Shown: in pieces, positions 11,831 to 64,000 of the stretch
Numbering within the stretch: position 1 is the stretch's first letter
How the letters are laid out: each line of letters opens with the position of its first letter
NCBI GenBank assembly: GCA_041650915.1
Contig: JBAZKE010000005.1
Span: forward strand, 11,310-75,309
DNA length: 64,000 nucleotides
DNA from: Patescibacteria group bacterium
Lineage (GTDB): Bacteria > Patescibacteriota > Patescibacteriia > UBA10025 > JAHIVO01
Reading direction: 5' to 3'
Position numbers and translations under genes: made by a program
The notes under the pieces: generated by a model
Told to the model about the DNA's origin: nothing
The model's database searches: none
The model's input: the letters and a program-made list of their open reading frames with translations, nothing else

Positions 11831-11865
11831 ATTTGGATGACAGGCCTCCCGGACGGGAGGGAGTA

Positions 11866-22705: not shown

Positions 22706-22711
22706 ATTAAG

Positions 22712-31880: not shown

Positions 31881-32609
31881 ATGCAAGACCAGCCAAACGA
31901 GCCAAAGGAAATGTCAAAAACAACCGCCTGGATTATCCTCGGCGCTATCGTTGTAGTACTCGCAGCGGGAGGATACTACTTCCTGGCGCAGGAAAATGGG
32001 AATACAAACAGTTCAAATGCCGTCACGGTTACGAATACAATGGCGAATGAGAACGTAAATGGATCGATGAATGCAAATACTGAGTTGAATACGAATACAA
32101 CTTCCAATACCAACGAGGTTACGAATACAAATACCGAAGTTGATACCTCAGATTGGCTGACCTACACCAACAGCGAGTATGGCTATACCATGCAGTATCC
32201 CAGTGATTGGACGGTGGAAGAGGTTAAGCTGTCCGAAGATCCAGATAGCCGAGGTAGGATACCACCGTTAAGAGCTGTTAAATTTCGTAACGAGAATAAA
32301 AGGTTCTTATTAGTAATGTATTTGAAACCAATTACTGAACTCGGAACTCCATATATGAGCGCATCTCCTGCATGGGATCAAAGTGAATTCAAAATACAGG
32401 TTGGCCAGTACACCATATCGGCAATTAAAGAAACAAGCGAAGGAAGAATTCAAACTATTTATATCCCTGGACCATCGCAATTGGTACAGCTGGGTAGTTA
32501 CGATTTTGCAGCCTATCTCATTGACTACTCCGATAATGACGCAAGGGATTTATCAAAGAACAATGAGTACTATGTAATACTCGAAATCCTCAAAACCCTC
32601 AACATATAA
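31881..32609 (+). CDS. membrane-anchored N/T-rich protein, paralog family member C
   Basis: 242 aa. A TM helix (WIILGAIVVVLAAGGYYFLAQENGNTN), an N/T-rich linker, then DTSDWLTYTNSEYGYTMQYPSDWTVEEVKL. Confidence 0.6.
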   Translation: MQDQPNEPKEMSKTTAWIILGAIVVVLAAGGYYFLAQENGNTNSSNAVTVTNTMANENVNGSMNANTELNTNTTSNTNEVTNTNTEVDTSDWLTYTNSEYGYTMQYPSDWTVEEVKLSEDPDSRGRIPPLRAVKFRNENKRFLLVMYLKPITELGTPYMSASPAWDQSEFKIQVGQYTISAIKETSEGRIQTIYIPGPSQLVQLGSYDFAAYLIDYSDNDARDLSKNNEYYVILEILKTLNI

Positions 32610-32684: not shown

Positions 32685-35495
32685 ATGTTTTTCAGAACCA
32701 CTGCAATTGCAATTGCCACATTCTTTTTGGTAGTGCCAGCGTTAATCATGGCAGATGAAAATGAATGTGGTGGAGTTGTCTATCTGGGAAACCAGTATGA
32801 TTGCTGTCCCAACGGGAGTAACTGTGTATGGTGGGCATATGCCCAACGTCCTGATCTCGAAGATGAGGGTGTACATGGGTATGGGAAAGATTGGTGGGTA
32901 GACGCTCAAGGTAATGTCAGTACTGGCACTCAAGCAAAGGTTGGCGCTATCGTAGGATTTAGCGAAAACTATTTTGACGATAATCCTTACGGTCACGTTG
33001 CCTATGTACAATGGGTCAACACTGATGGATCATTTGAAGTCTCAGAAATGAGCTGTAATTACGGACCGAGTGGCGTCACTTACAAACACTATACCAGTAC
33101 TGATCAAGGTTTTATCTACGGCGGCCCCGTACCGTTCTACGAACAGCGCTCGCCGGAAGGAGCCATCAACTGGCGGGAATCTCACTTGCTGACCGAAGCC
33201 AATCCCTACTCCGGTCATACCTCGAGCCACCAGCCGTTGTCAGCATTCGGATCGCGTGACCAGTGGGGCATGCACTGGTACCACAATTACATCATTTCCA
33301 GCCAGGACAAGTTCTTCTCCGACGGTACGCCGAAAAACTGCTATGTCCAGGGCTACGTGGGTCGTTCTGGAGGGTATGGGTATGACGGTGCGGTCGTGTA
33401 CGATGCGCTTGGCGGTGCCCGGTCGGCGTACGTTGTCGGCTGGGACCAGTGGGACGTGTGGCATGAGCTGCTGCCGTACGGGGATTACCATTTTGATCCC
33501 GGTGATGGCGGTCCGAATTCATCTTTGGGCATGCCTATCACCAATTCCTATTGGACCGGCTCAGTGTGGCGGCAGGATTTCCAAAAGGGATACCTGTCGT
33601 ACGGAACTGTCCATGGGTACGGTGATGACGGCGCGCTGTGTGCTCCGGGATGGAGCACGTCAGGATGGAATCATCGTTATTCATACCTCTTTACCGAAGC
33701 GTACGAGCGTAATGGTGCAGCGGTTCGGGTCGGTAAATCGTTTAATAAGAACGGGACCAACGGCAAGGTCATGAACTACGTTGGCGATTACCTTATCCAG
33801 TACTTCAGCGGGGGAGTTAATGGAGAGGGAGCTATTGTCTACGACATGAACAACTGGGCAGGCAATCCCGCAGCCACCAACGAGGCCTACTACCTCTACG
33901 GCAACTTCTACACCTACTGGACAACGGTATCTGATATCGGCCCATGGGTACTTGGCGCTCCGACAACCGACCGCACGGGTAACGTACAGTACTTCAAGTA
34001 CGGTCGCATGGTCGATGACAACGGCGTCACCCGGGTATACCTCGGCGAGCAGGAGATCTGGAACAACCAGGTTGGTGCTGTTGGCGGCCTAGACCCGATT
34101 GCAGACGGCCACGAAGACCTCGCCTGCATGTACGGCGGGCGTTCAACCATGCATATCCCGGTATGGCTCTCCGACGGTACCCAGTTTAACCTGGATAACG
34201 GCCTGGCGGGTTGGTACGGATCGTCATCCTGGCCTGTGGCGAATATCCGGCACGTTGTGGAAGGCGATTTCAATGGGGATGGCCTCGATGATATCGCCGA
34301 TTTCTACGACTACGGACTGCAGCCAAATGGCACGTACCAGACGCGGATCCACGTATTCAAGTCAACCGGCTCCAGCTTCGTGCTCTCCGGCGGCCCGCAG
34401 GGGTGGTGGAAAGCAGATGGCTACACTGCCAGTCACGTCGTCCACGCGGTCGCAGGCGACTTCAACAACGACGGTAGGGATGACATAGCCTCCCTGTACG
34501 ACTACCCCGAAACTGAAGCGCGGATCCATGTGTTCATCTCGACCGGATCCTCGTTCACCTATTACGGCCCGGTCGGATGGTGGCACGTCACTTCCGGGTA
34601 CAACACCGATTGCGTGAGGCATATGGCCGCGGGCGACTTCAACGGGGACGGAAAGAGCGACATCGCCGCGGTCTACGACTACGGCGGCGCCCAGACGAGG
34701 ATACACATGTTCCTGTCAACGGGCAGTTCCTTTGCCTACCAGGGTCCGTCAGGATGGTGGAGTTCAACCGGATACTACGCGAGTACGGTCGTGCACGCGC
34801 TGCCCGGTGACTTCAACGGGGACGGCAGGGACGACATTGCAACCCTCTACGACTACGGCAACGGTCAATCGAGGATTCATGTATTCCTGTCGACCGGCTC
34901 GTCGTTTGTGTACCAGGGTCCTACGGGTTGGTGGAACAACATCGGGAGCGGGAGCTACCATGCGCAGAACGTCAAGCGAGCCGCAGCAGGCGACTTCAAC
35001 GGGGACGGAAAGGACGACGTGACGCTTGCCTACCGCTACTCGGCAAATGAAGCCCGGTTCCATATGTTTCTGTCGAGGGGAACGTCGTTTCGCCAGAACA
35101 ACGCAGCAACTGGCTGGTGGTCCAGTACAGGCTTCTCGCTCGATGCCGTGTACGGCATGGTGGCGGGCAGGTTCAACTGGATCGGCTCGCCGAAAATCGC
35201 ACAGCCGGAAGAAAACCGTGGGCCTCTTCCGACAGCCTTCACCCTGTCCCAGAACTACCCCAATCCATTCAACCCTACTACCACCATCTCCTACGCTTTG
35301 CCTGAGGCAACGCACGTGGAACTGCACGTGTACAACATCCTCGGACAAAAGGTAACAACGCTCGTTGACGAATACCAGACTGCTGGCCAGCACGAAATCT
35401 CGTGGGCCGCTGACCAGCACGCGTCAGGCATCTATTTCTACCGCATCAGGGCGGGCGATGCCGTGGAATCGAAAAAAATGGTACTGCTCAAGTAG
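32685..35495 (+). CDS. secreted CHAP-domain protein with multiple FG-GAP/VCBS-like repeats and a C-terminal T9SS-type sorting domain
   Basis: 936 aa. Signal peptide. CHAP region (CCPNGSNCVWWAYAQR ... GHVAYVQWV). About 7 repeats of the form GDFNGDG.DDIA..YDY. The CTD NYPNPFNPTTTISYALP...VYNILGQKV...YFYRIRAGDAVESKKMVLLK matches that of 11866..15033 almost exactly. Confidence 0.8.
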   Translation: MFFRTTAIAIATFFLVVPALIMADENECGGVVYLGNQYDCCPNGSNCVWWAYAQRPDLEDEGVHGYGKDWWVDAQGNVSTGTQAKVGAIVGFSENYFDDNPYGHVAYVQWVNTDGSFEVSEMSCNYGPSGVTYKHYTSTDQGFIYGGPVPFYEQRSPEGAINWRESHLLTEANPYSGHTSSHQPLSAFGSRDQWGMHWYHNYIISSQDKFFSDGTPKNCYVQGYVGRSGGYGYDGAVVYDALGGARSAYVVGWDQWDVWHELLPYGDYHFDPGDGGPNSSLGMPITNSYWTGSVWRQDFQKGYLSYGTVHGYGDDGALCAPGWSTSGWNHRYSYLFTEAYERNGAAVRVGKSFNKNGTNGKVMNYVGDYLIQYFSGGVNGEGAIVYDMNNWAGNPAATNEAYYLYGNFYTYWTTVSDIGPWVLGAPTTDRTGNVQYFKYGRMVDDNGVTRVYLGEQEIWNNQVGAVGGLDPIADGHEDLACMYGGRSTMHIPVWLSDGTQFNLDNGLAGWYGSSSWPVANIRHVVEGDFNGDGLDDIADFYDYGLQPNGTYQTRIHVFKSTGSSFVLSGGPQGWWKADGYTASHVVHAVAGDFNNDGRDDIASLYDYPETEARIHVFISTGSSFTYYGPVGWWHVTSGYNTDCVRHMAAGDFNGDGKSDIAAVYDYGGAQTRIHMFLSTGSSFAYQGPSGWWSSTGYYASTVVHALPGDFNGDGRDDIATLYDYGNGQSRIHVFLSTGSSFVYQGPTGWWNNIGSGSYHAQNVKRAAAGDFNGDGKDDVTLAYRYSANEARFHMFLSRGTSFRQNNAATGWWSSTGFSLDAVYGMVAGRFNWIGSPKIAQPEENRGPLPTAFTLSQNYPNPFNPTTTISYALPEATHVELHVYNILGQKVTTLVDEYQTAGQHEISWAADQHASGIYFYRIRAGDAVESKKMVLLK

Positions 35496-41589: not shown

Positions 41590-43467
41590 CTATTTGATGA
41601 GGAGCATTTTCAAATTCTTGTGATACTCCCCGACTGTGACCCGGCACAGGTACATGCCGGTGGCGAAGTTGCTACCCGCATTCCACTCTACGGAATACTC
41701 ACCCGGCTCCTGCTTGCCGTCGTACAAAACAGTCACTACTTGCCCGAGGACATTGTAGACATAGATGTTCACATCGCACGTTTTCGCGACCGAATAACGG
41801 ATAGTCGTGCTGGGATTGAACGGATTTGGATAGTTTGGACCTACCGAGACCGTATCGACTGGGTCACCCTTCAATTCCGACGAAGGTGATACCACAAGCT
41901 TTGGTAGCGGGCCACCGTTCGGATGACACTGCACCGGCATTACCGCAAACACACTATCGAGCGGATAGTCGTACATCTGATAAATGCCCTGCCCGCCGGA
42001 ATAATCAAAGGAGTTACCCGTCGAATAGAATGATTGCAACCGCGTCTCTTCCTCGCTGATGCGGGAAAAGAGGATAATATCACCGTAGGCATCACCGTTG
42101 AAGTACCCTGCGCAGCCAAAGAGCTTGGTTGCGGCATTGTACCCATCCGCTTGCCACCACCCTTGACCACCGGTGTAATGGAATGACGAGCCTGTCGACA
42201 GAAACGTCTGAATCCGAGTCTGGTACTGACCATTAGGCTGGAGACCGATGTCTCGCACGATCGCGATATCGTCCAGATCGTTTCCATCATAATCGCACAC
42301 GAGTACATGTACTGACCGTCGCGCCTCGTACCCGTCGGCTTGCCACCAACCCTGACCACCAGAGTAAGCGAAGTAGGTGCCCCGGGACATGAATACCTGA
42401 ATCCGGGTCTGGTACTTGCCGTTGGGCTGCAAGCCAATGTCGCGCACGATCGCGATGTCAAAACCGTCTACATGATCGAACCGACCAGCGACGAACGCAA
42501 CGCAACGCCGCGCTTCATAGCCGTCCGCGGCCCACCATGATACAGGACAGTTAAACTGCCCTGTCGCAGGATTCCATGCCGTAACGAAGATTTCCGACCG
42601 ATACTTACCGTTGAGCTGCAAGCCCCTGTCAACAAGAAACGCTAAATCCACATAGCCGTCGCGGGTAAAGTCCCCACCGGTCATATCGACCACGTCATCG
42701 ACAGTGAAATCGATCGATGGACAATCGCCGCTGAACATCGTCTCTCCGAAATCAACGTACTCTCCTTCATGATCCCAAACGGCCTGCTCTATGCAGAAAC
42801 CAACACCATTAGGGGAAGTGGCATCCGTCTTATACAAGAGCACAACGTCAGTCATGTCATCCCCGTTAAGTGACCCACTAAACGTTTGCCAGAGTGTCCG
42901 CGTAGTATCGACCGTGAACATTCTCCAACCGTACGAACCTTCATAGATGATACCGTCTCCCGTTGAAAGAAACGGCTGTGCACGAAACCGACGTTGCCCA
43001 CCATTGAATCTCCCATGTCGTCCGACCGCTAGAATATCCGTTGCCTGTACAAGACCATCGGCAGGATACACGTCACCGGTCCTGATGTACAAATCATTGG
43101 ACATTCCAGACCAATTTCCGTATGGGTCGGCAGCCCGAGCAGTCACATGGTAGCTCGTGCTCGGACTCAATCCGGTCAGGACATACGTTTCCATTACGTC
43201 CGGCAGGTGTGGCGGGAACGGATCGAAGAAATGCGTACCGTACACCTGCCACTCATTGAGTTCCGTCGGTGGAGTATCCCCGCTGATGCAGATATCATAC
43301 TTATCCACCGGCAGCTCAAGAACTACATTCGAATCATTGTCGAGATCAGCCGGCGCAGGCCAGACAATCCTCGCGGAATACGCATTGTTCGACGATGCAC
43401 TTACCGATACGGCTATCATCAGGACAACTAGTCCTACAGATACTCCTAAGAAACCTCTTCTTTCCAT
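41590..43467 (-). CDS. secreted protein with fibronectin-III-like N-terminal domain, FG-GAP-like repeats and a T9SS-type C-terminal sorting domain
   Basis: 625 aa. Signal peptide. The CTD VGPNYPNPFNPSTTIRYSV...VYNVLGQVV...GMYLCRV...LIK is a more divergent copy of the same domain. Confidence 0.75.
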   Translation of the reverse strand: MERRGFLGVSVGLVVLMIAVSVSASSNNAYSARIVWPAPADLDNDSNVVLELPVDKYDICISGDTPPTELNEWQVYGTHFFDPFPPHLPDVMETYVLTGLSPSTSYHVTARAADPYGNWSGMSNDLYIRTGDVYPADGLVQATDILAVGRHGRFNGGQRRFRAQPFLSTGDGIIYEGSYGWRMFTVDTTRTLWQTFSGSLNGDDMTDVVLLYKTDATSPNGVGFCIEQAVWDHEGEYVDFGETMFSGDCPSIDFTVDDVVDMTGGDFTRDGYVDLAFLVDRGLQLNGKYRSEIFVTAWNPATGQFNCPVSWWAADGYEARRCVAFVAGRFDHVDGFDIAIVRDIGLQPNGKYQTRIQVFMSRGTYFAYSGGQGWWQADGYEARRSVHVLVCDYDGNDLDDIAIVRDIGLQPNGQYQTRIQTFLSTGSSFHYTGGQGWWQADGYNAATKLFGCAGYFNGDAYGDIILFSRISEEETRLQSFYSTGNSFDYSGGQGIYQMYDYPLDSVFAVMPVQCHPNGGPLPKLVVSPSSELKGDPVDTVSVGPNYPNPFNPSTTIRYSVAKTCDVNIYVYNVLGQVVTVLYDGKQEPGEYSVEWNAGSNFATGMYLCRVTVGEYHKNLKMLLIK

Positions 43468-53299: not shown

Positions 53300-54067
53300 A
53301 TGGGCCCGAGAACCACTTCACTGCAAAAGTGTATGGCAGGCATTGTACTGTGCCTCTTCTTTGTCGTGCCGCTCAGCGCATCTTCCCAAACCGTCGACGA
53401 GCACCTCATCCGAGAAATAATCAACCGGCAGCGCGCTGAAAAAAATCTGCAGCCGCTAGGAAGCAATGCTGCGCTCGGCGCCGCAGCCCTCCTGAAAGCC
53501 GAAGACATGCAAGCCAAAAGCTACTTCGCGCACGAAAGCCCGGACGGCCGCATGCCATGGGATTTTATCGACCCGATTGCGTACCCGTACGAGTACGCCG
53601 GTGAAAACCTCGCACTCGACTACGACGATCCCGCCGAAGTCGTTGCGGCCTGGCTCGAGAGCCCTACGCACCGCGACAACGTGCTCAATCCCAACTTCAG
53701 CCATCTCGGACTCGCCACATCGACTGTTGACGGCAAAACGGCGATCGTCCTGCTGCTCGGCAGTGCGCCCGTTGCCGACGGTCACGCTGATGGCAGCAAC
53801 ACCGCACAAACGGACGCGATATCAAATAGTCAAGGAACAAATACCCCTGTACTGAGCATACCCATTATATCAGATAACGCTACTCCCGAAAAACGCGCGG
53901 TAGCTGGCCGATATTACGCCGGGAATGAGCCTGAAATCGGTTCACGAACCCATCAAAAAACCAGTCTCCCCTACATCCTGTTTACGGCCTATACAGTATG
54001 GCTCGCGGGAGTCTGTCTTGCCATTAAGAACGAACAATATGAGCTGCCCAAACCTGTGAAAAAGTAG
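53300..54067 (+). CDS. secreted CAP/SCP (PR-1-like) domain protein with C-terminal membrane anchor
   Basis: 255 aa. Signal peptide. YFAHESPDG...YAGENLA...AWLESPTHRDNVLNPNFSHLGLA. A C-terminal hydrophobic helix. Confidence 0.75.
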   Translation: MGPRTTSLQKCMAGIVLCLFFVVPLSASSQTVDEHLIREIINRQRAEKNLQPLGSNAALGAAALLKAEDMQAKSYFAHESPDGRMPWDFIDPIAYPYEYAGENLALDYDDPAEVVAAWLESPTHRDNVLNPNFSHLGLATSTVDGKTAIVLLLGSAPVADGHADGSNTAQTDAISNSQGTNTPVLSIPIISDNATPEKRAVAGRYYAGNEPEIGSRTHQKTSLPYILFTAYTVWLAGVCLAIKNEQYELPKPVKK

Positions 54068-54635: not shown

Positions 54636-57600
54636 ATGAGATCAACTAAGTCAAAATCTATGATAATCAATCTAATTCCAAAGAGAAAGGTCCTGCAGAC
54701 GACCTACAAAACCCTGCACTTCGTGGCTGGCTTGGCCATGGTATTTAATATGTCGATGCTCGGGACATTTCTGACGCCAAGTACGGCTCAGGCAATTACC
54801 ACCTACTGTCCTGCGAGCGGTAACCCGCTTTACATGTGGGATCGTACTCCAAGTACCGGCTGGAGTCACGGCAACATCTCCGGTTACTTTGAAGGAGAAT
54901 ACATACCCGTACAGCTTGCGTTGGACGGTCTTACGGCAGGGGTTTCGACAACGATTCGTGTCCAACACGAATATATACGCTACGGAGTAGTTGGTATTGA
55001 GCGCCTTGATCACGTAAACGCGCCGGTCGAACCTGGAGTTACTTACAACGCTGACCGTCTGAACTTCACCATGAGCGCACCGACCACGATCGGCTCCAAT
55101 CCATCAAGTAAGCGATACGTGCTTACATTCACACCAACCGGTACAACGGCAAGCCTCTACTTTGATGCTCTGCTCGGACCGCATGCACATCTGTACAACG
55201 GATCCTCTCTCCACGTGAGCTTGTCGGACTGCGGCTCAAAAGATGTACCGATCAATGTAAACCAGATACTCTATCACAACCTGACGGTTTCTAAATCAGA
55301 TAATCCAGATCCGATTTTAATCAATACCAATACCACTTACACCATCACCGCAACGAGTAACAGTAAGACTGATGGCGGAGAAAAAAACTTCACCGTCACC
55401 GATACACTTCCAGCGGGCATGGAATACGTAAACGGTTCCGCAACGCCCACTCCAACGTCGGTGAATGGCCAGGTGATCACGTGGAACTTCGGTACGGTTG
55501 CAGACGGAACGATAAAAACAATCACGTTCCAAGCAAAAGGCATCAGTGTTGGAACGCATACGAATAGCGTTAGCCTCACTGCGGATGGTGCTACGCCAGT
55601 TACTGATACCGAGCCGACGACCGTGATTGGTCAGTGTGAACTGACAATCACTAAGACGGTCAACAAGGAAACCGCCGTTCCTGGAGACACTCTTCTCTAT
55701 ACTTTGAATTTCGAAAATACCGGAACGAGTAATTGCACAGGTGGCGGCGTTCGAATTGATGATGTAATGCCAACTGGCACGACATACGTCGCCAACTCAG
55801 CCTCGGGAAGCGACGGAAGTAAAATCACGAACACCAATGATCCAGGCAGCGACGGTACGCACTTCGGATACATGAGCGGAAAATTCGGTGCGAATAACCC
55901 CGGCTTCAACGGAACAATGCTGAGCTGGAATGCACACGTCCTAAGCCCGAACGAGTCCGGCACGGTAACGTTCCAAGCGACTGTCAATCCAATCGATTAC
56001 TGCACCGAAAAAGACATCACCAACAAAGGTAAAATTTACTCAAACGAATTTCCTTCGGGAATCAACTCAAATGAGGTTACAACTCTCGTAACAAGCCCCT
56101 GCACCTACTGCGGTGACGACATCAAGCAATCGCCAAATGACGCGGGTCAGTATGAAGAGTGTGATGGCACGGACGGAGTCGGGCCTCATCAGAGTTGCAC
56201 CACGGAATGCACACTGACCAATCTCACCTACTGCGGCGACGGCATCAAACAGACGCCCAACGACGCTGGGGAAAATGAAGAGTGCGACGGGACCGACGGC
56301 ACGCCCGATCACTATACCTGCTCAGCGGAATGCACGCTCGAGTACATCCCCTATTGCGGCGACGGAATCGTGAACCAGACGAGCGAACAGTGCGATGACG
56401 GCAATACGGTTGATACCGACGGGTGCAACAATCAGTGCCAAATCCAAACCTGTGATCTTGTTATTACAAAATCAGTTAACAAACAAAACGCGCTCCCGGG
56501 CGATACTTTAACGTATACCCTGGAATACCAAAACGACGGCTCAATGATCTGCACCGGCACGGGCGTAAAAATCTACGACCCGCTCGACGCCAGGCTGGCA
56601 TACGTCGCTGGTTCAAAAGCGGTTACCATTCACAATGACGGTGAAGGAGACGGCTATAGCCCGACCGAAGGCAGCAATTACAACGGCCATGGCGATAATC
56701 TCCTATTCAACGTCCGGCGCGTTAGCCCGGGCGAATCCGGAACGGTCACGTTTGACGTGACGGTAAACGGCAGTTTTGATTGCGGGCATACGGTCGTCCC
56801 GAACAAAGGAAAAATCTGGAGCGACCAAACAGGCTATATCTGGAGCAATGAAGTTACCACCGATATATATAAAGCTTGCTACGGCTCACTGAAAGTGATC
56901 AAATACGTTGACACGGGAAACGCGACCCCTGACCAATGGAGCTTTACCGTCGGCGATACAACGCTGTCCCCGGCATCGGGCGACAACTACGTTGTATTCA
57001 ATAACCTATACATGGGTGAGTACACAGCCACGGAAAGCGAACTCGCGGGATACCACCAAGTCTCAACGACCTGCACTGACGTACAAGTCAATCCTGATGA
57101 AATGGCCGTGTGCGAGTTCCATAACGCGCATGATACGGGTGAACTCACGATCAACAAAGCGCTCGACACTGACGGTGACGAGCAAATCGACGAAACTAAT
57201 CCGGCTGGCTGGACATACGACATCGACCCCGGCAACCAAAATTACGCGATGGGCACGACCCAGACGGTTTTCACCGGTACTTACACGGTATACGAAGACC
57301 AGCAAACGAATTACCATTCACTCGGATGGGTTTGCACTGACGGTACGTCAGGCACTGGCGAACAGCTCACGGTAAACGTTACCACCGACAATGTCGCGTG
57401 TACGTTTACAAACAGCCGCGATACCGGCGACCTCAAGATCATCAAGCAGGACGGCAACCAGCAGCGCATGGAAAATGTCGAGTTTGACATCGACGGCCAG
57501 ACGTACTACACGGATGCAAACGGTGAAATCTACGTGAGCGGCGTCGAGACCGGTGACTACCTTGCGACAGAGACCGAGCCCGCGAACTACTCATTCGCGA

Positions 57601-60600
57601 GCGTATCGGGCGTGAACTGCACCAACGAGAACCCCTCGACCGCAACGGTTGTGAAGGACTCGACCACAACCTGCACGTTCACCAATACGCGCAACACAAC
57701 GAAAATCTACTTTGATAAAGTCGTCTTGGGCGGCGGCCCCGGCGTTGACGCTGACTGGGAATTCACCGTCGGCGGTCAGGCCGGCACGTACAATGACGGC
57801 GACTACATCGTACTCCCGACCAACACGGGTCCGTACGCGGTCACGGAGGCATCCCAATACGACGACCTCTATACCCTGACGCACGCGTGGGGAGCCTGTT
57901 CGCTCGACGACGGCAGCATCGTGCTGAACGTCGGCAACGGCGAAAGCACCTGCTATGTCAAAAACACGAGAAACACCGGCTCGCTCCGCATCAAGAAATT
58001 CCTGGACAAGAACGCGAATGGAGAATGGGAATCCGGGCATCCGCACTACGAACCGCTTCTGACCGGATGGGAATTCACGGTTAAGCAGGGTGACCAGGTT
58101 GTCGGCACCTACACCACCGGATCGAATCCTGGCGGCCTCTCATGGATCGTCATTCCAAACCTGCCGACCGGCGAGTATACGATTACCGAAACGCTCAAGA
58201 GCGGATGGACCAATACGACCGAGCTCACGCAGAGCGCGATAGTAACCACGGGTGAAACAACGCGTTACTTCGGCAACTTCGAGAACGTCGACATCAAGGT
58301 AATCAAGTACATGGATACTGACGGCAGCAATGCCACGACCGGTGACCGCACGCCAGAACAGAACTGGACCGTCCAGCTGTGGAAGGGCGCGGTACAGGTT
58401 GGCACTGACCAGCTGACCGGCGGAGACGGTTCCTACACCTGGACCGACCTCGGCCCGGGCACGTACACCGTTAAAGAGCTGTTCGACGTGAACGAGTACA
58501 CTGCAATTTCAGCGACCGAATATACCTTCACGGTCAGCTCAGGCACGGACGTCACCAAGAAATTCGTCAACTTCGAGAACGTCGATGTCACAGTTTGCAA
58601 ATACATTGACGTGAACGGTGACGGCAGCATCGCAAATGATCCTGTCTATACGAACGGATGGACTGTCTACCTGAACCGGACTGAAGCAACGACCGGCGAA
58701 AACGGATGCTACACCTACGAGAACCTCGGCCCTGGCGCATACAACGTGTCAGAGGGCAGCAAAGAAGGCTGGACACAGACCTATCCCGCATCGGGCGACT
58801 ACAACTTCAACGCATCATCCGGCGTGGACATGACCTACAACTTCGGCAATTTCAAGCTCGGCTTTATCTCGGGCTACAAGTTTAACGACCTCAATGGAAA
58901 CAGCGTCTGGAACGATGGCGAACCCGGCATCCCAAGCTGGAAAATCATGCTGGACAACGGCAGTGTCAGGTACACGGACAGCAATGGCTACTACTCATTC
59001 ACCGGCCTCGCTGCCGGCACGTACGTCGTGTCCGAGAAAAACCCCTACGGCTGGACTCAAACCTACCCGGCTGATCCCGGCACTCACACCGTCAATATTC
59101 AATCAGGAACGATTGACGAGAGCAACGACTTTGGCAACTTTGACAACATCGATGTTACCGTCTGCAAGTACGTCGATGCCAATGGCGATGGTTTCCTGAC
59201 TGACGAACAGCCATACATGGGTTGGAACGTATATCTTGGCGACAACATGCAGGTAACCGGAGAAAACGGCTGCTACACCTACGCCAATGTCGGTCCTGGC
59301 AATTATGACGTTACTGAAGATACCAGCGTTGCAGGATGGGTGCAGACCTATCCGGCAGAAGGCAGCTATAACTTTGACGCGGTTTCGGGCGAAGACCGGA
59401 CGTTCAACTTCGGCAACTTTGAAACGCCGCACCTGACCGTCATCAAGCACGTGATCAATGACAACGGCGGCACGGCAGTCGCGTCTGACTTCACCATGAA
59501 CGTGACCGGAACCAACGTATCTGACGATTCATTCGATGGAACTGAAGCTCCTGGTGTTACGGTGGATCTGGATGCCGGCGACTATAGCGTGGATGAGATC
59601 GAACTGGCCGGCTATGCCAAGACGCTCGGCGCTGACTGCTCCGGATCCGTCTTGAGCGGCGACCACAAAACCTGCACCATCACGAATGACGACATCACCG
59701 CACATCTGACGCTCGAAAAATTTGTTACCAATGATAATGGCGGCGACAGCGTTCCTGCTGACTGGAATCTCAGCGCAACCGGAACAGCAACTCCCCTTTC
59801 TGACTTCGGTTATGCCGATGGGGACGTTGATGCGGGCGTCTACACGCTTTCTGAATTGGGTCCTGACGGATACGACGCAACAGACTGGAGCTGCGAGGGC
59901 GGAATACTTGAGGGCAATACCATTACTCTTGCTCTCGGCGAATCAGCGTATTGCTCAATCTCAAACGACGACATCGCACCGAAGCTGAAACTCGTGAAAA
60001 CCGTTACCAATGATGACGGCGGTACGCTCGAAGTATCCGACTTCCCGCTCTTCATCAACAGTGGCGAGGTAACGAACGGCGAATGGAATACGCTCGTAGC
60101 GAACGTACTCTACACTGCGACGGAAACTGAAAATTCTGGATACGTAGCGTCCGTCTGGACCGGCGACTGTGCCGAGGACGGTACGATTACCCTGCAGCCG
60201 GGCGACGAGAAAACCTGCTACCTGACCAATGACGATATTCCAGGCCGCATCGATGGCTTTAAGCTCGATATGCACGAAAACCCGCTCAACGGCTGGATGA
60301 TCTGTCTCGTACCTGAGACCGGTGAGCAGGCACAGCCCTCGGACACCCGTGGGGAAGTACCTGAAGCAAACTGCGTGGTAACAGGCGACGGTGAATGGGA
60401 AGACGGTTATTACGCATTTGAAAACGTCCCTGCCGGCACCTATACACTCTATGAAATGCAGCAGTATGGCTGGACTCCGGTTGATCCCGATACGGGCGGC
60501 TACACGGGCGTACTAGTCGAACTTAATACGACCACCAGCAGAAACTTCATGAACCGCTTGAACGAATTCGCAGTGGACATCGAAAAGCTCGCACCAGAAA

Positions 60601-62186
60601 CCGTGGTAGCAGGCGGCCAGATGACCTACACGCTCAACTGGGCGATCACCGGCAATACTGACGTATTCAATGCGGTTGTTACAGACGTGCTGCCGGCAAA
60701 CACGACGTTCGTTTCATCGCCGGACGGTACCTATGACGAGGCTACGAACACCATCACCTGGGACCTCGGAACCGTAACGCCCGATGATTCTGGCACCGTT
60801 ACCTTCATTGTTAAGACAGCTTCGCCGCTCGATAACGGAACTGTTATCGAAAATACCGGCGAGGTATGCGGTACGGGCTATATCGTACCTGAAGGCGAGA
60901 CCGAACTCTTCGATGAGAAGGGCGTGACCAAGTGCGATTCGAGCACGACAACCACAACCGTTGAATCGGAGCCGATACTCGGCATTGAGAAGGTCAACGA
61001 CCGGCCAATTGCGAATCCGGGAGACACGGTCAACTATACCGTCTCCTGGTCGGTGGATGGCAACTCGCAGGCGACTAACGTAACCCTCGTCGATACGATT
61101 CCCGTTGAACTCACGGTCGATACCGCATCCATCAGCGATGGTGGAGCATACGACGCCTCCGCGCGCACCATCACGTGGGACCTGGGCACCCGGGTACCGC
61201 ACGCAGAAGGGTTCGTCACCTACTCCGGTAGCGTGGCTTCACCGCTCGCGGACGGCACAACCTTCGTGAACGTCGCCAAGATAACAAGCACTGAAACCGA
61301 TCCGAAATTCTGGGAAGCGCAGTCAGAGGTGCTCGTACAGGCTGGCCCGATTCTGACCATCGACAAGGTGGTTGACGCAACATTCGTCAATCCCGGCGGC
61401 ACAGTGACCTACACGGTCACGGTAGCAAACGTCGGTAACGATACGGCGTACAATGTTGAGCTTACCGACCTCCTGCCAGCCGGATTTACGTTCGTAGACT
61501 ACGCAACCGCGACACATACGTACAGCCTCGGCGACATGGCGGCCGGTGACGAAATCACCACGACGTACAAGGTGGCGGTCGGCACGAGTGTCACGGCAGG
61601 CAACTACGACAATCTCGCGACCGCATCGGCGGACAACCACGGCAACATATCGGACGATGCGACCGTCGAAGTCCGCATCCCGCAGGTACTTGCCGAAGAA
61701 GCGTATCCGAACCTGCAGCTCGTCAAGACTGTCGACAAGGAATTCATCAACCAGGGCCAGTCCGTCACATACACGCTCACGGTGTCAAACACCGGTGACG
61801 CATCGGCGCTCGCCGTCGCGGTCAACGTGCACGTGCAAGACGTGCTGCCCGCAGGCTTCACGTTTGAGGACGGCGAGGTAACCAAGGTCTGGACGCTCGG
61901 AGACATCAAGGAAGGCGAATCGAAGACGATCACCTACACCGCGATCTCCGACAAGACCATCCTCCCCGGCACGTACGAGAACCTGGCTGTCGCGTGGGCG
62001 GACAACAACGACCGCGTCACCGACTCGGTTGACGTCGAGGTGCGTGAAATCATCGTACTCGGCGAAGCGCTCCCGACCACCGGCGGCGGATTCATGAATA
62101 TCCTGTACGGTTTCGCGGCAATCCTCGTACTCGCCTTCTCGGCGTACGTGCTGCGGCTCACCGCCTCGCGCGGAAGGACTGAGTAA
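54636..62186 (+). CDS. giant (2516 aa) LPXTG-anchored surface protein with DUF11-type repeats, three Cys-rich repeats and about 12 Cna-B/prealbumin-like domains
   Basis: Signal peptide (...TPSTAQA). DUF11-like repeats (GDTLLYTLNFENTG, GQMTYTLNWAITGN, GGTVTYTVTVANVGN...). Three CGDGIKQ.PNDAG..EECDG...C..EC Cys-rich repeats. Repeated GWT/GYxxxxxxC Cna-B-like domains. C-terminal LPTTGGG + a 20-aa hydrophobic segment + RLTASRGRTE. Confidence 0.85.
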   Translation: MRSTKSKSMIINLIPKRKVLQTTYKTLHFVAGLAMVFNMSMLGTFLTPSTAQAITTYCPASGNPLYMWDRTPSTGWSHGNISGYFEGEYIPVQLALDGLTAGVSTTIRVQHEYIRYGVVGIERLDHVNAPVEPGVTYNADRLNFTMSAPTTIGSNPSSKRYVLTFTPTGTTASLYFDALLGPHAHLYNGSSLHVSLSDCGSKDVPINVNQILYHNLTVSKSDNPDPILINTNTTYTITATSNSKTDGGEKNFTVTDTLPAGMEYVNGSATPTPTSVNGQVITWNFGTVADGTIKTITFQAKGISVGTHTNSVSLTADGATPVTDTEPTTVIGQCELTITKTVNKETAVPGDTLLYTLNFENTGTSNCTGGGVRIDDVMPTGTTYVANSASGSDGSKITNTNDPGSDGTHFGYMSGKFGANNPGFNGTMLSWNAHVLSPNESGTVTFQATVNPIDYCTEKDITNKGKIYSNEFPSGINSNEVTTLVTSPCTYCGDDIKQSPNDAGQYEECDGTDGVGPHQSCTTECTLTNLTYCGDGIKQTPNDAGENEECDGTDGTPDHYTCSAECTLEYIPYCGDGIVNQTSEQCDDGNTVDTDGCNNQCQIQTCDLVITKSVNKQNALPGDTLTYTLEYQNDGSMICTGTGVKIYDPLDARLAYVAGSKAVTIHNDGEGDGYSPTEGSNYNGHGDNLLFNVRRVSPGESGTVTFDVTVNGSFDCGHTVVPNKGKIWSDQTGYIWSNEVTTDIYKACYGSLKVIKYVDTGNATPDQWSFTVGDTTLSPASGDNYVVFNNLYMGEYTATESELAGYHQVSTTCTDVQVNPDEMAVCEFHNAHDTGELTINKALDTDGDEQIDETNPAGWTYDIDPGNQNYAMGTTQTVFTGTYTVYEDQQTNYHSLGWVCTDGTSGTGEQLTVNVTTDNVACTFTNSRDTGDLKIIKQDGNQQRMENVEFDIDGQTYYTDANGEIYVSGVETGDYLATETEPANYSFASVSGVNCTNENPSTATVVKDSTTTCTFTNTRNTTKIYFDKVVLGGGPGVDADWEFTVGGQAGTYNDGDYIVLPTNTGPYAVTEASQYDDLYTLTHAWGACSLDDGSIVLNVGNGESTCYVKNTRNTGSLRIKKFLDKNANGEWESGHPHYEPLLTGWEFTVKQGDQVVGTYTTGSNPGGLSWIVIPNLPTGEYTITETLKSGWTNTTELTQSAIVTTGETTRYFGNFENVDIKVIKYMDTDGSNATTGDRTPEQNWTVQLWKGAVQVGTDQLTGGDGSYTWTDLGPGTYTVKELFDVNEYTAISATEYTFTVSSGTDVTKKFVNFENVDVTVCKYIDVNGDGSIANDPVYTNGWTVYLNRTEATTGENGCYTYENLGPGAYNVSEGSKEGWTQTYPASGDYNFNASSGVDMTYNFGNFKLGFISGYKFNDLNGNSVWNDGEPGIPSWKIMLDNGSVRYTDSNGYYSFTGLAAGTYVVSEKNPYGWTQTYPADPGTHTVNIQSGTIDESNDFGNFDNIDVTVCKYVDANGDGFLTDEQPYMGWNVYLGDNMQVTGENGCYTYANVGPGNYDVTEDTSVAGWVQTYPAEGSYNFDAVSGEDRTFNFGNFETPHLTVIKHVINDNGGTAVASDFTMNVTGTNVSDDSFDGTEAPGVTVDLDAGDYSVDEIELAGYAKTLGADCSGSVLSGDHKTCTITNDDITAHLTLEKFVTNDNGGDSVPADWNLSATGTATPLSDFGYADGDVDAGVYTLSELGPDGYDATDWSCEGGILEGNTITLALGESAYCSISNDDIAPKLKLVKTVTNDDGGTLEVSDFPLFINSGEVTNGEWNTLVANVLYTATETENSGYVASVWTGDCAEDGTITLQPGDEKTCYLTNDDIPGRIDGFKLDMHENPLNGWMICLVPETGEQAQPSDTRGEVPEANCVVTGDGEWEDGYYAFENVPAGTYTLYEMQQYGWTPVDPDTGGYTGVLVELNTTTSRNFMNRLNEFAVDIEKLAPETVVAGGQMTYTLNWAITGNTDVFNAVVTDVLPANTTFVSSPDGTYDEATNTITWDLGTVTPDDSGTVTFIVKTASPLDNGTVIENTGEVCGTGYIVPEGETELFDEKGVTKCDSSTTTTTVESEPILGIEKVNDRPIANPGDTVNYTVSWSVDGNSQATNVTLVDTIPVELTVDTASISDGGAYDASARTITWDLGTRVPHAEGFVTYSGSVASPLADGTTFVNVAKITSTETDPKFWEAQSEVLVQAGPILTIDKVVDATFVNPGGTVTYTVTVANVGNDTAYNVELTDLLPAGFTFVDYATATHTYSLGDMAAGDEITTTYKVAVGTSVTAGNYDNLATASADNHGNISDDATVEVRIPQVLAEEAYPNLQLVKTVDKEFINQGQSVTYTLTVSNTGDASALAVAVNVHVQDVLPAGFTFEDGEVTKVWTLGDIKEGESKTITYTAISDKTILPGTYENLAVAWADNNDRVTDSVDVEVREIIVLGEALPTTGGGFMNILYGFAAILVLAFSAYVLRLTASRGRTE

Positions 62187-62428
62187 CCGTTTCTCACAGC
62201 AAATCGATTGAAATAAACAAGGCGCTTGGACCGTTCCAGGCGCCTTGTTGCTTGCCAGCGCCGACTTCGCTAGTTGACAATGCTGAGCCAAAGGACAATC
62301 AGCACCCGACGATCCTGGGCGTCGAATTGCCGGTTACCGGCGCCGTCTTCTACGGCTTGCTGCTGGGCGCCATCGTACTTGCACTGGTTGCAATCGTGTA
62401 CTGGCGGCACCATAAAACAAAATACAAC

Positions 62429-62791
62429 CTATCCACTGATAATCTTCATTAATAGTTCTATTACACCAGCGATGTTTCGGTAAACATCCTGATTAGTGAC
62501 CCTCACAATCCGGATGCCGAACGACTCGATATATTTCTGGCGCTGTTTATCGTATTCAATTGCTTCCTTTGAGATATAATGCGACGGCCCGTCAACCTCA
62601 ATCCCAAGCCTGAGCCGGGGGCAATAAAAATCAAGCACATACCCGCCTACGCTGTATTGCCGGCGAAACTTATAGCCAGCCAGCTGCTTGTCTTTCAAAT
62701 AACGCCACAGTACCACCTCCGCGCGTGGTGCACTGTTCCTGAGAGCCTGGCGCCGTTGCTTCATCGAGTGTGTGTTGTAGATGATTGTCAT
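62429..62791 (-). CDS. DUF559 endonuclease-domain protein (Vsr-like fold)
   Basis: 120 aa. GYKFRRQYSVGGYVLDFYCPRLRLGIEVDGPSHY matches the DUF559 core. Confidence 0.75.
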   Translation of the reverse strand: MTIIYNTHSMKQRRQALRNSAPRAEVVLWRYLKDKQLAGYKFRRQYSVGGYVLDFYCPRLRLGIEVDGPSHYISKEAIEYDKQRQKYIESFGIRIVRVTNQDVYRNIAGVIELLMKIISG

Positions 62792-63105: not shown

Positions 63106-63496
63106 CGTATCACACCCCCAAACGCATGTCCAAACAACCTCCCGCTCATGGGAAGGTCTGTTTCTATACTACTATTTTTCAGCCGGGCGCGCAATCATTT
63201 TTTCAGCGCTTCTTCGTTTGGCAAGCCGCAAGCTTTACCATCACGGGCGCTGAAACCCGCGATGGTTCGAGGGTGTGGCGGCGTTTCAATCTCCTCCGAA
63301 CGCAGGTGTCCCCGCCCGCGTTCACGTCCGTACGGTATACCAGCAGATGCATGGGAAAGCCTATCCTCATAGTAACCGCGCGATATCCAATTGGGTGACT
63401 TCCGCCCTCCGGGACGTTCCGATCTGCCGCCCATCTACCGCCCAATGCAAAATCCTGGAGCCGGCGGTTAAAAATCCGGCTGCATAGTTCTCCACT

Positions 63497-63525
63497 TGAC
63501 AACAATTACCACGTTTTATATAATC
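63497..63525 (+). promoter_or_regulatory. consensus sigma70 promoter TTGACA-17-TATAAT
   Basis: cacTTGACAacaattaccacgttttaTATAATcaacc, about 120 bp upstream of the partial CDS at 63646. Confidence 0.5.
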
Positions 63526-63645
63526 AACCGATTTATGATATAATAAGCCCTGCTCCCAAAAACAACGATTTCCATATATTAGCCCGCAAAAACAAAGCCA
63601 ATAAACTATATTAATAAAGGTACCTAGGAATAAGGAAAAAACTTA

Positions 63646-64000
63646 TGCACAATGTATCAACAAAAAAGGGCTTTTCTGCCCTGCCAGTTCTCATCTCAGT
63701 GGCTGCGGTTGCGTTAGCAGCAGCGTTCTTTTTGCTAGCTCCGCAACAGGCGGATGCGGCTACCGGAGTCAACTGGATAAAAGTGAATGACATGGGAGCG
63801 GTCCACGTGGCTCCAAATACTGAAGTGACAGTTAAGGTTAATGTTTCAACTTCTGGTATGTTTGAAAATGATGACTGGAAATCGACCGAATATAAAATCG
63901 AAGGCGGATCCTGGATTTGCGTAAACACAGCAGACCATACCAGTGACGGAACATATACAGAAAGTTTTTCCGTGAATGCACCTGCGTCAGCCGGTACTTA
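63646..64000 (+). CDS. secreted protein, N-terminal part (open to the right edge of the window)
   Basis: An ATG at 63646 preceded by aaggaaaaaactt. MHNVSTKKGFSALPVLISVAAVALAAAFFLLAPQQADAATGVNW... is a clear signal peptide. No stop before the window end. Confidence 0.5.

Follow-up and report, generated by a model that had tools for sequence, protein, structure and literature searches.

The window, meaning the whole 64,000-nucleotide stretch of DNA analyzed here, encodes a giant surface protein close to its downstream end. The features of this protein and of its surroundings are as follows.

53300..54067, + strand: secreted protein with a CAP/SCP domain, immediately upstream of the giant; the same pairing occurs in related loci L002 and L004
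54636..62186, + strand: coding sequence of the giant surface protein, 2516 aa
54636..54794, + strand: Sec-type signal peptide of the giant (aa 1-53), read from sequence and hydrophobicity
54795..55280, + strand: N-terminal "head" of the giant (aa 54-215), candidate adhesive domain, matching no Pfam family
55281..56105, + strand: two DUF11/CLIPPER (CnaA-like) domains, aa 216-490 (DUF11, two stretches, 3.3e-22)
56106..56450, + strand: three acidic repeats rich in Cys (YCGDxI...C..C), with starts at aa 491, 532 and 573
56451..56888, + strand: third DUF11/CLIPPER domain, aa 606-751 (DUF11, 1.4e-10)
56889..60563, + strand: stalk of 13 CnaB/SpaA-like prealbumin-fold domains, aa 752-1976 (profiles and our own parse)
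60564..62045, + strand: four C-terminal DUF11/CLIPPER domains, aa 1977-2470 (Pfam and our own parse)
62070..62183, + strand: sortase-type cell-wall sorting signal of the giant (LPTTG, GG, hydrophobic helix, RLTASRGRTE)
62183..62449, + strand: putative fossil sorting signal, a stop-to-stop frame ending ...ILGVELPVTGAVFYGLLLGAIVLALVAIVYWRHHKTK..., with neither Met nor signal peptide
62216..62249, no strand: perfect 10-bp inverted repeat, AACAAGGCGC ... GCGCCTTGTT, 30 nt past the stop codon of the giant
63496..63524, + strand: sigma-70-like promoter with a perfect match (TTGACA-17-TATAAT), lying upstream of the second LPXTG gene
63645..64000, + strand: 5' end of a second sortase-type substrate, which leaves the window; locus L034 is identical to the window

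The original prediction described a 2516-aa protein with three myxococcal-type Cys-rich repeats, several DUF11-like repeats and about a dozen Cna-B-like domains, and we conducted domain analysis of the giant. Its open reading frame, when re-read, has the claimed coordinates and size; the 2516-aa product is not on record as an exact database entry, both NCBI and ENA starting the protein instead at Met9 (nt 54660), which gives 2508 aa (MFA5135433.1). The signal peptide consists of a basic n-region, the hydrophobic core FVAGLAMVFNMSMLG (KD 1.72) and the end ...STAQA, followed by I. Over the whole protein Pfam reports seven DUF11 stretches (2.5e-72), in keeping with the "several" predicted, along with SpaA_2 (6.1e-41), SpaA (1.7e-28) and SdrD_B. 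Our own parse of the sequence yielded 13 CnaB-like units of 82-108 aa each, therefore "about a dozen" was right; every unit carries a Lys in the first strand and an Asn in the last (...xK... / ...xN...), which is typical of isopeptide formation. The seven DUF11/CLIPPER and 13 CnaB/SpaA-like domains give a stalk of about 20 Ig-like domains; DUF11 corresponds to CLIPPER, an isopeptide domain of fibrillar adhesins (PMC12617251). The three Cys-rich repeats are likewise present, the third alone being supported by models (DUF4215, 4.4e-10 and 40.1 bits against a cut-off of 27; TIGR02232, 38.6 bits against 20.8) and the first two being recognized only by their similarity to it.

The C-terminus of the giant reads ...GEALPTTGGGFMNILYGFAAILVLAFSAYVLRLTASRGRTE. 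The LPTTG motif (aa 2479-2483, nt 62070-62084) is followed by GGFMNILYGFAAILVLAFSAYVL, with its hydrophobic stretch of about 22 aa (KD 2.33), and then by the basic tail RLTASRGRTE, and a syntenic ortholog of the giant on a 1.15-Mb contig (L004) ends in LPVTGGG, a trans-membrane segment and the basic tail ...RLTLARDDN; the predicted sequence of LPTTGGG, hydrophobic helix and basic tail is thus borne out by sequence, hydrophobicity and the ortholog. The LPXTG-anchor models TIGR01167 (NCBIfam, E<=0.1) and PF00746 (Pfam, E<=0.01) did not match the giant, which is a weak negative: these models are short, and divergent tails are often lost to the filters of HMMER. Of 5876 ORFs scanned in 814 kb, just four have the tripartite tail, namely the giant, its ortholog in L004, the 1152-aa neighbor and one fossil ORF, and a chance origin is excluded. 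The neighbor gene begins 1.4 kb downstream of the giant, and its 1152-aa product has a signal peptide, DUF11/SdrD_B domains and an LPTTG signal at its end (VLPTTGAGMLGIVAGSILAFGSAMVIKRRMK). The fossil frame between the two genes probably represents what is left of the 3' end of a further LPXTG gene. The inverted repeat that lies within it resembles a terminator stem but lacks a T-run, and a consensus terminator scan made no call there.

These features suggest that Sec would export the giant and that the LPTTG motif, hydrophobic helix and basic tail would keep it in the membrane, where a sortase would most likely cut between Thr and Gly and join the protein covalently to peptidoglycan. As a long fibrillar adhesin, the giant could then present its 160-aa N-terminal head on the stalk to a partner cell or surface; the position of the head fits an adhesive head. 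Both the sortase processing and the self-forming isopeptide bonds to which the Lys/Asn signatures of the stalk may give rise are predicted from sequence, and the second LPTTG protein next door would presumably follow the same sortase pathway. The closest known systems are the sortase-anchored, MSCRAMM-like fibrillar adhesins of Gram-positive bacteria, which share with the giant the signal peptide, the non-repeat N-terminal head, the tandem Ig-like stalk of CnaB/SpaA and DUF11/CLIPPER domains with the Lys/Asn signature in every CnaB-like unit, and the LPXTG, hydrophobic and basic signal. Unlike them, the giant is encoded by a Patescibacteria/CPR cell, its head matches no known adhesive domain, and its stalk is interrupted by the three Cys-rich repeats, with many paired cysteines. 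We also considered a sortase-polymerized pilin, which we rejected as there is no YPK pilin motif, and a thioester adhesin head, which we rejected as Pfam gave no match; the sole Cys context in the head, TYCPAS, does not look like the motif of thioester domains.

Three other secreted proteins of the window (P1, P2 and P3) had been predicted to carry C-terminal domains (CTDs) of the kind associated with type IX secretion systems (T9SS). The three proteins and the genes paired with them are listed below.

11866..15033, - strand: P1, with signal peptide, CHAP, LamG, CarboxypepD_reg and a type A T9SS CTD (nt 11869-12105), by Pfam and NCBIfam
15113..15820, - strand: partner gene directly 5' of P1, of the same family as the partner of P2 by sequence similarity
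15919..17367, - strand: cassette lacking a CTD, in which a third partner gene (16705-17367) is followed by a stand-alone M23 peptidase (15919-16608)
31881..32609, + strand: partner gene directly 5' of P2, with a TM anchor, an Asn/Thr-rich linker, the motif W.TY.N..GY..YP..W and a small domain
32685..35495, + strand: P2, with signal peptide, CHAP, FG-GAP repeats and a type A T9SS CTD (nt 35256-35492), by Pfam and NCBIfam
41590..43467, - strand: P3 (MFA5135420.1), with signal peptide, a body distantly similar to P2 and a type A T9SS CTD (nt 41593-41832), by Pfam and NCBIfam

All three CTDs exceed the curated cut-offs, as claimed: P1, P2 and P3 score 35.6, 39.1 and 31.5 bits with PF18962 (cut-off 27) and 45.0, 44.7 and 35.9 bits with TIGR04183 (cut-off 23). 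In each protein the CTD forms the extreme C-terminus and the hydrophobic N-terminus (KD 1.68-2.79) is a signal peptide. A profile built only from FCB sequences gave scores of 101-154 bits and matched the CPR CTDs over their full length at 125-154 bits, with all conserved motifs kept (NYPNPFNP, LGQ, GxYFYR and KKMxLLK), and the nearest named CTDs are those of Zixibacteria, Marinimicrobia, Calditrichota and Ignavibacteria (55-65% identity). The AF2 model of the CTD (pLDDT 90.9) is a 7-strand beta-sandwich; Foldseek matched it to the T9SS CTD structures 8gl8_D, 8gl6_D, 8glk_D, 8qb1 and 5m11 at 3e-3 to 2e-2, weak matches that stand among generic Ig domains and fit a T9SS CTD without singling one out. 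The P1 and P2 CTDs share a near-identical tract of about 165 nt, which shows gene conversion between the two copies in the window.

Proteins of this kind recur in MAGs labelled Patescibacteria or Parcubacteria, on contigs of up to 1.08 Mb. They combine a peptidoglycan hydrolase (M23 or CHAP) and, in some members, FG-GAP or LamG with the T9SS-type CTD, and a homologous membrane-anchored partner gene precedes the hydrolase in all ten contexts examined. The CTD is the best-conserved part of the family (61% identity against 36% in the body, higher in 150 of 153 pairs), an apparent conservation that recurrent transfer could inflate, since some cassette copies lie on mobile elements with a relaxase, a TraG-like coupling protein or a recombinase nearby. 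Positional orthologs exist for P1 (P0136, CHAP plus CTD, JAQULM010000001) and for P3, at whose syntenic position in L003 a CTD is also encoded. The partner proteins have no Pfam or NCBIfam match, NCBIfam giving only sub-threshold noise on them and on the other unannotated ORFs, and the structure predicted from four window paralogs is unusable (pLDDT 49.8); by the profile searches the partner family is novel. Within 10 kb on either side of the cassettes, about 200 kb of contexts, there are no T9SS, outer-membrane or sortase genes.

The best relatives of the organism's ManC are Patescibacteria MAGs (68-71% identity), 10-12 genes are syntenic with such MAGs, and the proteins of the window itself carry the NCBI label [Patescibacteria group bacterium]; Rfam and tRNA scans found no taxonomic markers in the window. 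Several related loci are titled "uncultured Gammaproteobacteria", titles that we judged unreliable because ManC identity places these loci with Patescibacteria-labelled genomes, as does synteny wherever it was checked. CPR bacteria are described as monoderm and sortase-rich (PMC6744442, PMC12857230, PMC12102498), with a sortase encoded in more than half of their genomes (PMC6744442). Surveys of thousands of CPR genomes report no outer-membrane markers, PilQ and the TonB system being absent, and describe T4SS and pili of monoderm type (PMC6744442, PMC12102498); the T9SS is reported in the FCB superphylum only (PMC11205867). It follows that in this organism the LPXTG protein is to be expected, and that what is anomalous is the T9SS-type CTD. 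For a lineage described as monoderm the giant would be an ordinary fibrillar adhesin of the sortase type, the kind of protein expected of a CPR epibiont.

No sortase was found by Pfam among all 44 larger ORFs of the window, nor in the 9 kb of the ENA contig beyond it, and a search of 814 kb of related loci by phmmer (with S. aureus SrtA as the query) and a TLxTC motif scan, a procedure of low sensitivity, returned nothing credible. The suggestion of a class E sortase is unsupported because the motif of the giant is LPxTG and not LAxTG.

Type A T9SS CTDs are treated as diagnostic of FCB bacteria that have a T9SS and an outer membrane, and pipelines label their carriers T9SS cargo. The original prediction implied a link between the CTDs and a diderm, FCB-type envelope, which is not supported here: by ManC, synteny and NCBI labels the organism belongs to Patescibacteria/CPR, described as monoderm (PMC12857230, PMC12102498). 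The co-occurrence of LPXTG and CTD proteins, thought unusual, recurs across several Patescibacteria genomes and is not a one-off. As for two C-terminal sorting systems in one genome, both signals are genuine, while a second pathway is probably the wrong reading of them; a single system, the sortase, is probably in operation, and the T9SS-type domain most likely functions with no T9SS involved. P1-P3 do resemble the T9SS cargo of Bacteroidota/FCB (TIGR04183 / PF18962; RgpB, RemA, ChiA) in their full-length, above-threshold CTD with all motifs at the extreme C-terminus, in its predicted 7-strand beta-sandwich, in the N-terminal Sec signal and in the presence of several such proteins per genome. 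They differ from it in that they belong to a lineage described as monoderm, from which neither a T9SS nor an outer membrane has been reported, that the cargo is narrow, consisting of M23/CHAP hydrolases always paired with a membrane-anchored partner, and that PorU processing or A-LPS attachment is implausible in CPR. We do not class P1-P3 as T9SS cargo, despite their genuine CTDs.

Taken together, we consider it fairly likely that a CPR genome encodes here a sortase-anchored giant adhesin together with CTDs that are a captured, re-purposed "orphan" module of hydrolases, a reading of the CTDs adopted in view of reports that CPR have neither an outer membrane nor a T9SS. The CTD proteins would be Patescibacteria-wide, Sec-exported enzymes, each encoded directly after its membrane-anchored partner gene. 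Their CTD is most likely no secretion signal in CPR and more probably a captured FCB-type beta-sandwich, held under strong selection as a module that targets or retains the hydrolase, directing it to the wall or surface of either the CPR cell itself or a host cell. Both this role and the absence of a T9SS are inferred, the latter for this genome from the phylum literature. The CTD, intact, recurs in peptidoglycan hydrolases and is retained vertically in a phylum that reportedly has neither an outer membrane nor a T9SS, and our literature search found no paper, in the library that it covered, linking T9SS-type CTDs to Patescibacteria. The surprise therefore lies not in the giant adhesin but in the CTDs, that is, in a tiny-genome CPR bacterium having a conserved hydrolase family with T9SS tails. 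The presence of a CTD alone is no basis for inferring envelope type or taxonomy; the domain must serve a function independent of a T9SS, or one aimed at the T9SS of another organism. The hydrolase and partner cassette offers a concrete and testable handle on how CPR remodel their own wall or attack that of a host.

Regarding the role of the hydrolases themselves, it is possible, if rather doubtful, that they are housekeeping autolysins, either FtsEX-controlled division hydrolases similar to EnvC/PcsB or VirB1-like wall-openers of a T4SS, with the CTD as a wall-binding domain; this is compatible with the orphan-module reading. The gene order ftsE-ftsX-partner-M23-CTD in three genomes (L039/L040, L049, L008), the weak PcsB similarity of the CHAP part of P2 and the copies located beside a TraG-like coupling protein and relaxase point in this direction, and hydrolases of monoderms usually bear wall-targeting domains. 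Several paralogs per genome with variable FG-GAP/LamG binding modules, however, are harder to reconcile with housekeeping, as is the carriage of some copies on mobile elements, and the window's own CTD genes adjoin neither ftsEX nor T4SS genes. Known hydrolase/partner pairs (Tae/Tai of the T6SS; FtsEX-EnvC/PcsB; VirB1-like PrgK, TraG) likewise place an M23 or CHAP enzyme beside a small envelope partner, and some CPR cassettes likewise sit beside ftsEX or a coupling protein and relaxase; the CPR pairs differ in their novel partner family and in a hydrolase that bears a T9SS-type CTD and no known wall-binding or secretion domain.

The CPR CTDs look just like FCB CTDs and keep every T9SS recognition motif, a result that simple re-purposing towards a new ligand would not predict. 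An interaction with genuine T9SS components, such as those belonging to a host, is thus conceivable. We consider it unlikely that the CTDs of a CPR epibiont bind the PorV, the SprA translocon or the PorU attachment complex of an FCB host, and thereby tether the hydrolases to the host outer membrane or smuggle them to the host peptidoglycan, much as bacteriocins exploit outer-membrane receptors. Such a role would agree with the full-length match to the FCB-only profile, with the FCB origin of the nearest CTDs and with a constraint that is stronger on the CTD than on the enzyme body. Peptidoglycan hydrolases with FG-GAP/LamG modules would suit an attack on a host wall, the adjacent membrane-anchored partner could act as an immunity protein, and CPR live as epibionts and require contact with a host (PMC12857230). 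Against this, no FCB host is known for the lineage, and the cassette beside ftsEX in three genomes fits a self-directed division hydrolase better. We also know of no precedent for reverse-direction import through a T9SS translocon. The combined proposal, in which a captured FCB secretion tag, preserved in a form like that of the host, would be a key that docks hydrolases onto, or through, the host PorV/SprA/PorU while the partner confers immunity, seems improbable to us. If it were true, this would be the first secretion signal mimicked by another bacterium for attack or attachment, and a pointer to the hosts of an uncultured CPR lineage.

It is more doubtful still that the genes or their 3' ends arrived from FCB bacteria by horizontal transfer and that the CTD is a functionless passenger that has not yet decayed. 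While the FCB-like CTDs, the family members on mobile elements and one full-length homolog labelled Zixibacteria would be in keeping with such an origin, a functionless domain should not be the most conserved region of its family, nor be kept in positional orthologs where ManC is only 68% identical. The GC and codon usage of the CTD genes are fully native, the gene conversion between P1 and P2 maintains the CTD module, and the bodies have few or no FCB homologs.

A real T9SS-like export or attachment pathway in this lineage, and hence some outer layer, with both sorting systems in operation, is very improbable. At least three CTD proteins per genome with signal peptides and intact CTDs are the usual signature of a T9SS genome. 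However, the CPR surveys and the reported FCB-only distribution cited above speak against such a pathway, genomes of about 1 Mb leave little space for some 15-20 large T9SS genes, none of these genes occurs in the cassette contexts, and no genes for T9SS machinery (SprA/Sov, PorV, PorU, GldK/L/M/N) were seen in the window.

An assembly chimera or contamination, with CTD genes from an FCB bacterium and the LPXTG gene from a Gram-positive-like organism, had been named as a possible refutation and might be suspected from the apparent incompatibility of the two signals and the heterogeneous GC of the window (35-60%), but it is hardly credible and, within the limits of sequence data, already refuted: across 30 kb the three CTD genes are interspersed among core genes, the NCBI (79-kb), ENA (273-kb) and Logan assemblies agree on the arrangement, P1 and P3 have positional orthologs in other Patescibacteria MAGs, and the CTD genes share GC, GC3 and codon usage with housekeeping genes, the low-GC genes being different ones. 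The contig is not chimeric, and both C-terminal signals are genuine and belong to one real contig of one organism.

[quoted passage not shown]

11866..15033 (-), CTD protein P1
32685..35495 (+), CTD protein P2
41590..43467 (-), CTD protein P3

In each of the three, the CTD occupies the extreme C-terminus and a hydrophobic signal is present at the N-terminus. The CTD consensus is textbook type A (NYPNPFNP...VYN.LGQ.V...SG.YFYR...KKM.LLK). Modelling with 46 sequences confidently gives a beta-sandwich of seven strands (pLDDT 91), and its structural matches include solved T9SS substrate CTDs, at the weak level to be expected of a small Ig-like fold. Within a database of 5.8 billion proteins, the closest CTDs are 55-65% identical and, where named, come from Zixibacteria, Marinimicrobia, Calditrichota, Ignavibacteria and similar lineages of the FCB superphylum. 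Additionally, a profile built solely from FCB and environmental CTDs matches the CTDs of Patescibacteria (CPR) over their full length, with 125-154 bits.

The bodies carrying these CTDs, on the other hand, are not FCB proteins. Using P2 as a query we found a family composed of an M23 or CHAP domain, with or without FG-GAP, followed by PF18962; its labelled members are almost all Patescibacteria/Parcubacteria MAG proteins, encoded on contigs between 94 kb and 1.08 Mb long. In the window, the final ~165 nt of the CTD-coding parts of P1 (11869-12040, -) and P2 (35320-35492, +) are ~95% identical at the DNA level and include a perfect run of ~75 nt. Because the two genes are otherwise dissimilar, this tract indicates gene conversion or exchange of the CTD module within the genome.

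In all ten genomic contexts inspected, the gene directly 5' of the hydrolase-CTD gene, on the same strand, belongs to an unannotated family, which we call the partner family. Its members share a trans-membrane anchor, a linker rich in Asn, Thr and Ser, the motif W.TY.N..GY..YP and a small domain of some 120 aa; the AF2 model was of too poor quality for fold classification. In Patescibacteria the gene immediately 3' of the partner gene always encodes an M23 or CHAP hydrolase, and the three copies of the partner gene in the window precede P1, P2 and a stand-alone M23 peptidase. Possible roles of the partner protein are immunity, regulation or scaffolding.

Window, 15113-15820 (-), partner gene
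Window, 16705-17367 (-), partner gene
Window, 31881-32609 (+), partner gene
Related locus L036, 6390-7022, partner gene
Related locus L039, 9189-9970, partner gene
Related locus L041, 9184-9930, partner gene
Related locus L043, 8989-9930, partner gene
Related locus L045, 9286-9930, partner gene
Related locus L047, 9231-9959, partner gene
Related locus L008, 2445-3143, partner gene

Some of these partner-hydrolase cassettes are located in mobile-element settings (relaxase, TraG-like coupling protein, serine recombinase, ArdC), and others in core settings, either among ribosomal genes or adjoining ftsEX. Cassettes with an M23-FG-GAP-CTD protein in L036-L038, L045 and L048 lie in mobile or defence-island contexts together with genes for a Replic_Relax relaxase, a TraG/VirD4-like coupling protein, a serine recombinase, ArdC, restriction-modification, GmrSD and SocA. 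One 36-kb contig of this mobile type sits in a Zixibacteria bin; mis-binning or a real inter-phylum transfer may be the cause. In three Patescibacteria genomes the cassette is encoded beside ftsEX:

L039/L040, 4943-12697, cassette beside ftsEX
L049, 4777-10051, cassette beside ftsEX
L008, 421-5836, cassette beside ftsEX

The gene order in these three is ftsE-ftsX, a DPBB+S11 carboxypeptidase gene, directly the cassette, and then PCMT-ManC-YceG; in the lineage of the window, the slot beside PCMT holds a CAP protein and a giant adhesin instead of the cassette.

The gene content of the window (enolase, PGK, a NiFe hydrogenase operon, MraW-PBP-Mur ligase, LexA, YceG, DUF559 and three 7TM histidine kinases) suggests a CPR organism. 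When species-representative genomes were scanned with the window ManC, close relatives came only from Patescibacteria-type MAGs (68-71% identity), on contigs that include ones of 651 kb and 1.15 Mb, and three of these relatives keep the same order of 10-12 genes as the window at 43.6-54 kb. Several ManC-locus relatives (L006, L007, L010, L016, L017, L025, L027, L028, L030, L032) are deposited as 'uncultured Gammaproteobacteria bacterium', probably placeholder or wrong labels from a large TPA MAG set. The window proteins carry the NCBI label '[Patescibacteria group bacterium]' and belong to a contig of 79,289 bp; the sequence also occurs on an ENA contig of 273 kb and on Logan contigs. The contig is not a chimera of two organisms, on four concordant lines of evidence: the three CTD genes are interspersed among core genes over 30 kb, their positions are conserved and their composition is native. 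The positional ortholog of P1 in JAQULM010000001, P0136 (CHAP+CTD), is likewise flanked by an Fe-S/NAD-binding/EamA/hydrogenase/PGK block and a 7TM-kinase/FeeM/asparaginase block, and that genome also has a CTD at the position syntenic with P3. The CTD genes have GC of 0.53-0.57 and GC3 of 0.59-0.66, the values of housekeeping genes and of the giant adhesin gene; the low-GC genes of the window are others.

T9SS requires an outer membrane. Surveys of CPR genomes describe outer-membrane features as absent (PMC6744442), and PMC11205867 gives T9SS as reported only from the FCB superphylum. The observation behind the original prediction, namely the giant ORF with its LPXTG tail and domains and the three CTD proteins, is correct in every material detail, and both signals do co-occur in one genome; however, the proposal of two sorting systems is probably wrong, as CPR are described as monoderm. 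The sortase/LPXTG signal fits the monoderm envelope of the lineage. The CTD cassette is a known domain where the known mechanism should not operate, together with a new partner family. Automatic annotation as 'T9SS type A sorting domain-containing protein [Patescibacteria group bacterium]' is already in place, and a full-text literature search for T9SS-type CTDs in CPR bacteria found no paper discussing them.

The most economical reading is that of a captured and re-used FCB-type CTD in CPR hydrolases. The domain would have been captured and fused to lineage-specific hydrolase bodies; the CTD would have spread through recombination and mobile elements, and would be maintained by strong selection for a T9SS-independent role. 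We infer the function of the CTD throughout: hydrolases of other monoderms are targeted or retained by wall-binding domains, and by analogy the CTD most plausibly targets or retains the hydrolase on a wall or surface. The wall in question may be the cell's own, as the ftsEX neighborhood and the analogy with PcsB and EnvC suggest, or that of a host, to which the diversification of paralogs, the binding modules (FG-GAP, LamG) and the immunity-like partner point. The CPR CTDs are without any drift from the FCB consensus, which fits simple re-purposing poorly; therefore it is conceivable, if rather improbable, that binding to the T9SS components of FCB host cells is what keeps the CTD host-like. 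Over 18 family members, mean identity is 61% in the CTD and 36% in the body, with the CTD better conserved in 150 of 153 pairs; a functionless relic is unlikely, as is a truly functional T9SS in these cells.

The giant ORF was confirmed at 2516 aa; public gene calls start eight codons later (2508 aa; MFA5135433.1, 'NEW3 domain-containing protein [Patescibacteria group bacterium]'). It has the predicted sortase-type end, ...GEALPTTGGGFMNILYGFAAILVLAFSAYVLRLTASRGRTE, in which LPTTG (aa 2479-2483) precedes a highly hydrophobic segment and then a basic tail. Pfam/NCBIfam models recognise seven DUF11 stretches (2.5e-72), the prealbumin-fold domains SpaA_2, SpaA and SdrD_B, and one Cys-rich repeat (DUF4215/TIGR02232). 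A fragment-by-fragment scan combined with direct parsing of the sequence gave the following order, in agreement with the three Cys-rich repeats, several DUF11 and about a dozen CnaB-like domains expected (7 DUF11 and 13 CnaB-like were found):

Signal peptide, aa 1-53
Head of 160 aa that matches no family
Two DUF11 domains
Three Cys-rich repeats with starts at aa 491, 532 and 573
One DUF11 domain
13 CnaB/SpaA-like units, each 82-108 aa long
Four DUF11 domains
Sorting signal at the C-terminus

In direct parsing, all 13 CnaB-like units carry the first-strand Lys and last-strand Asn, and no YPK pilin motif was found in the protein. [quoted passage not shown] Sortases are enriched among CPR genomes, whose genes for pili, T4SS and transport are of monoderm type (PMC6744442, PMC12857230, PMC12102498). 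Given the tripartite tail, the isopeptide-type stalk domains, the lack of YPK and this sortase-rich monoderm background, the giant is best read, from its sequence, as a sortase-anchored, isopeptide-stabilised fibrillar adhesin, a well-known kind of protein. No sortase gene was found in the window, over the next 9 kb or among related loci.

53300-54067, CAP-domain protein, 5' of the giant
54636..62186 (+), giant adhesin
62183-62449 (+), apparent fossil sorting-signal frame, stop-to-stop, with no Met and no signal peptide
63496-63524, sigma-70-like promoter (perfect TTGACA-17-TATAAT) upstream of the second LPXTG gene
63645-64000 (+), second sortase-type substrate gene, continued in L034 (ENA contig identical to the window) at 5779-9237 (-)

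Among 5876 ORFs examined, the tripartite LPXTG tail is present only in the giant, its syntenic ortholog on a related 1.15-Mb contig (about 1996 aa, ending ...ALPVTGGGMLLWLYSAGALIVLAFAGWALRLTLARDDN), a 1152-aa neighbor and one fossil frame. The neighbor gene starts 1.4 kb 3' of the giant and extends past the window edge; in the identical ENA contig its product has a signal peptide, DUF11/SdrD_B and an LPTTG signal, ending VLPTTGAGMLGIVAGSILAFGSAMVIKRRMK. The genes that follow it there encode a CAP-domain membrane protein of 497 aa and a He_PIG protein. Because CAP-domain genes accompany both LPXTG genes, such pairs may form a unit. The frame at 62183-62449 resembles the fossil 3' remnant of a further LPXTG gene: it lies directly 3' of the stop codon of the giant and of a perfect inverted repeat of 10 bp, it closes with another complete sorting signal (ILGVELPVTG, 22 hydrophobic residues, RHHKTK), and its end overlaps the 3' end of the DUF559 gene. 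The stretch 62856-63105 has a 90-bp tandem repeat (2.2 copies, 95% identical) that includes a perfect palindrome, TTCCCCTCCTCA...TGAGGAGGGGAA; a solo copy of the hairpin is at 62856-62880, intergenic between the DUF559 gene and the second LPXTG gene.

Two further loci were observed. A low-GC island (GC 0.33-0.35 vs about 0.54) at 20509-23410 (-), with 17627-20506, 24081-25520 and 29666-31135, has genes for a methyltransferase, an adenylating enzyme similar to PaaK and an N-acyl amino acid synthase of FeeM/autoinducer-synthase type, and is flanked by three 7TM-receptor histidine-kinase genes. FeeM adjoins a 7TM kinase in L041 and L043 too, and together these genes may form an acyl-amino-acid signalling module in CPR. 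The locus at 3386-11959 (-) encodes NiFe hydrogenase large and small subunits with Fe-S (Fer4_22) and FAD/NAD-binding subunits; HypA and HypC are found near it (L001 and L043), its layout is group-3b-like, and the synteny is kept in a related genome.
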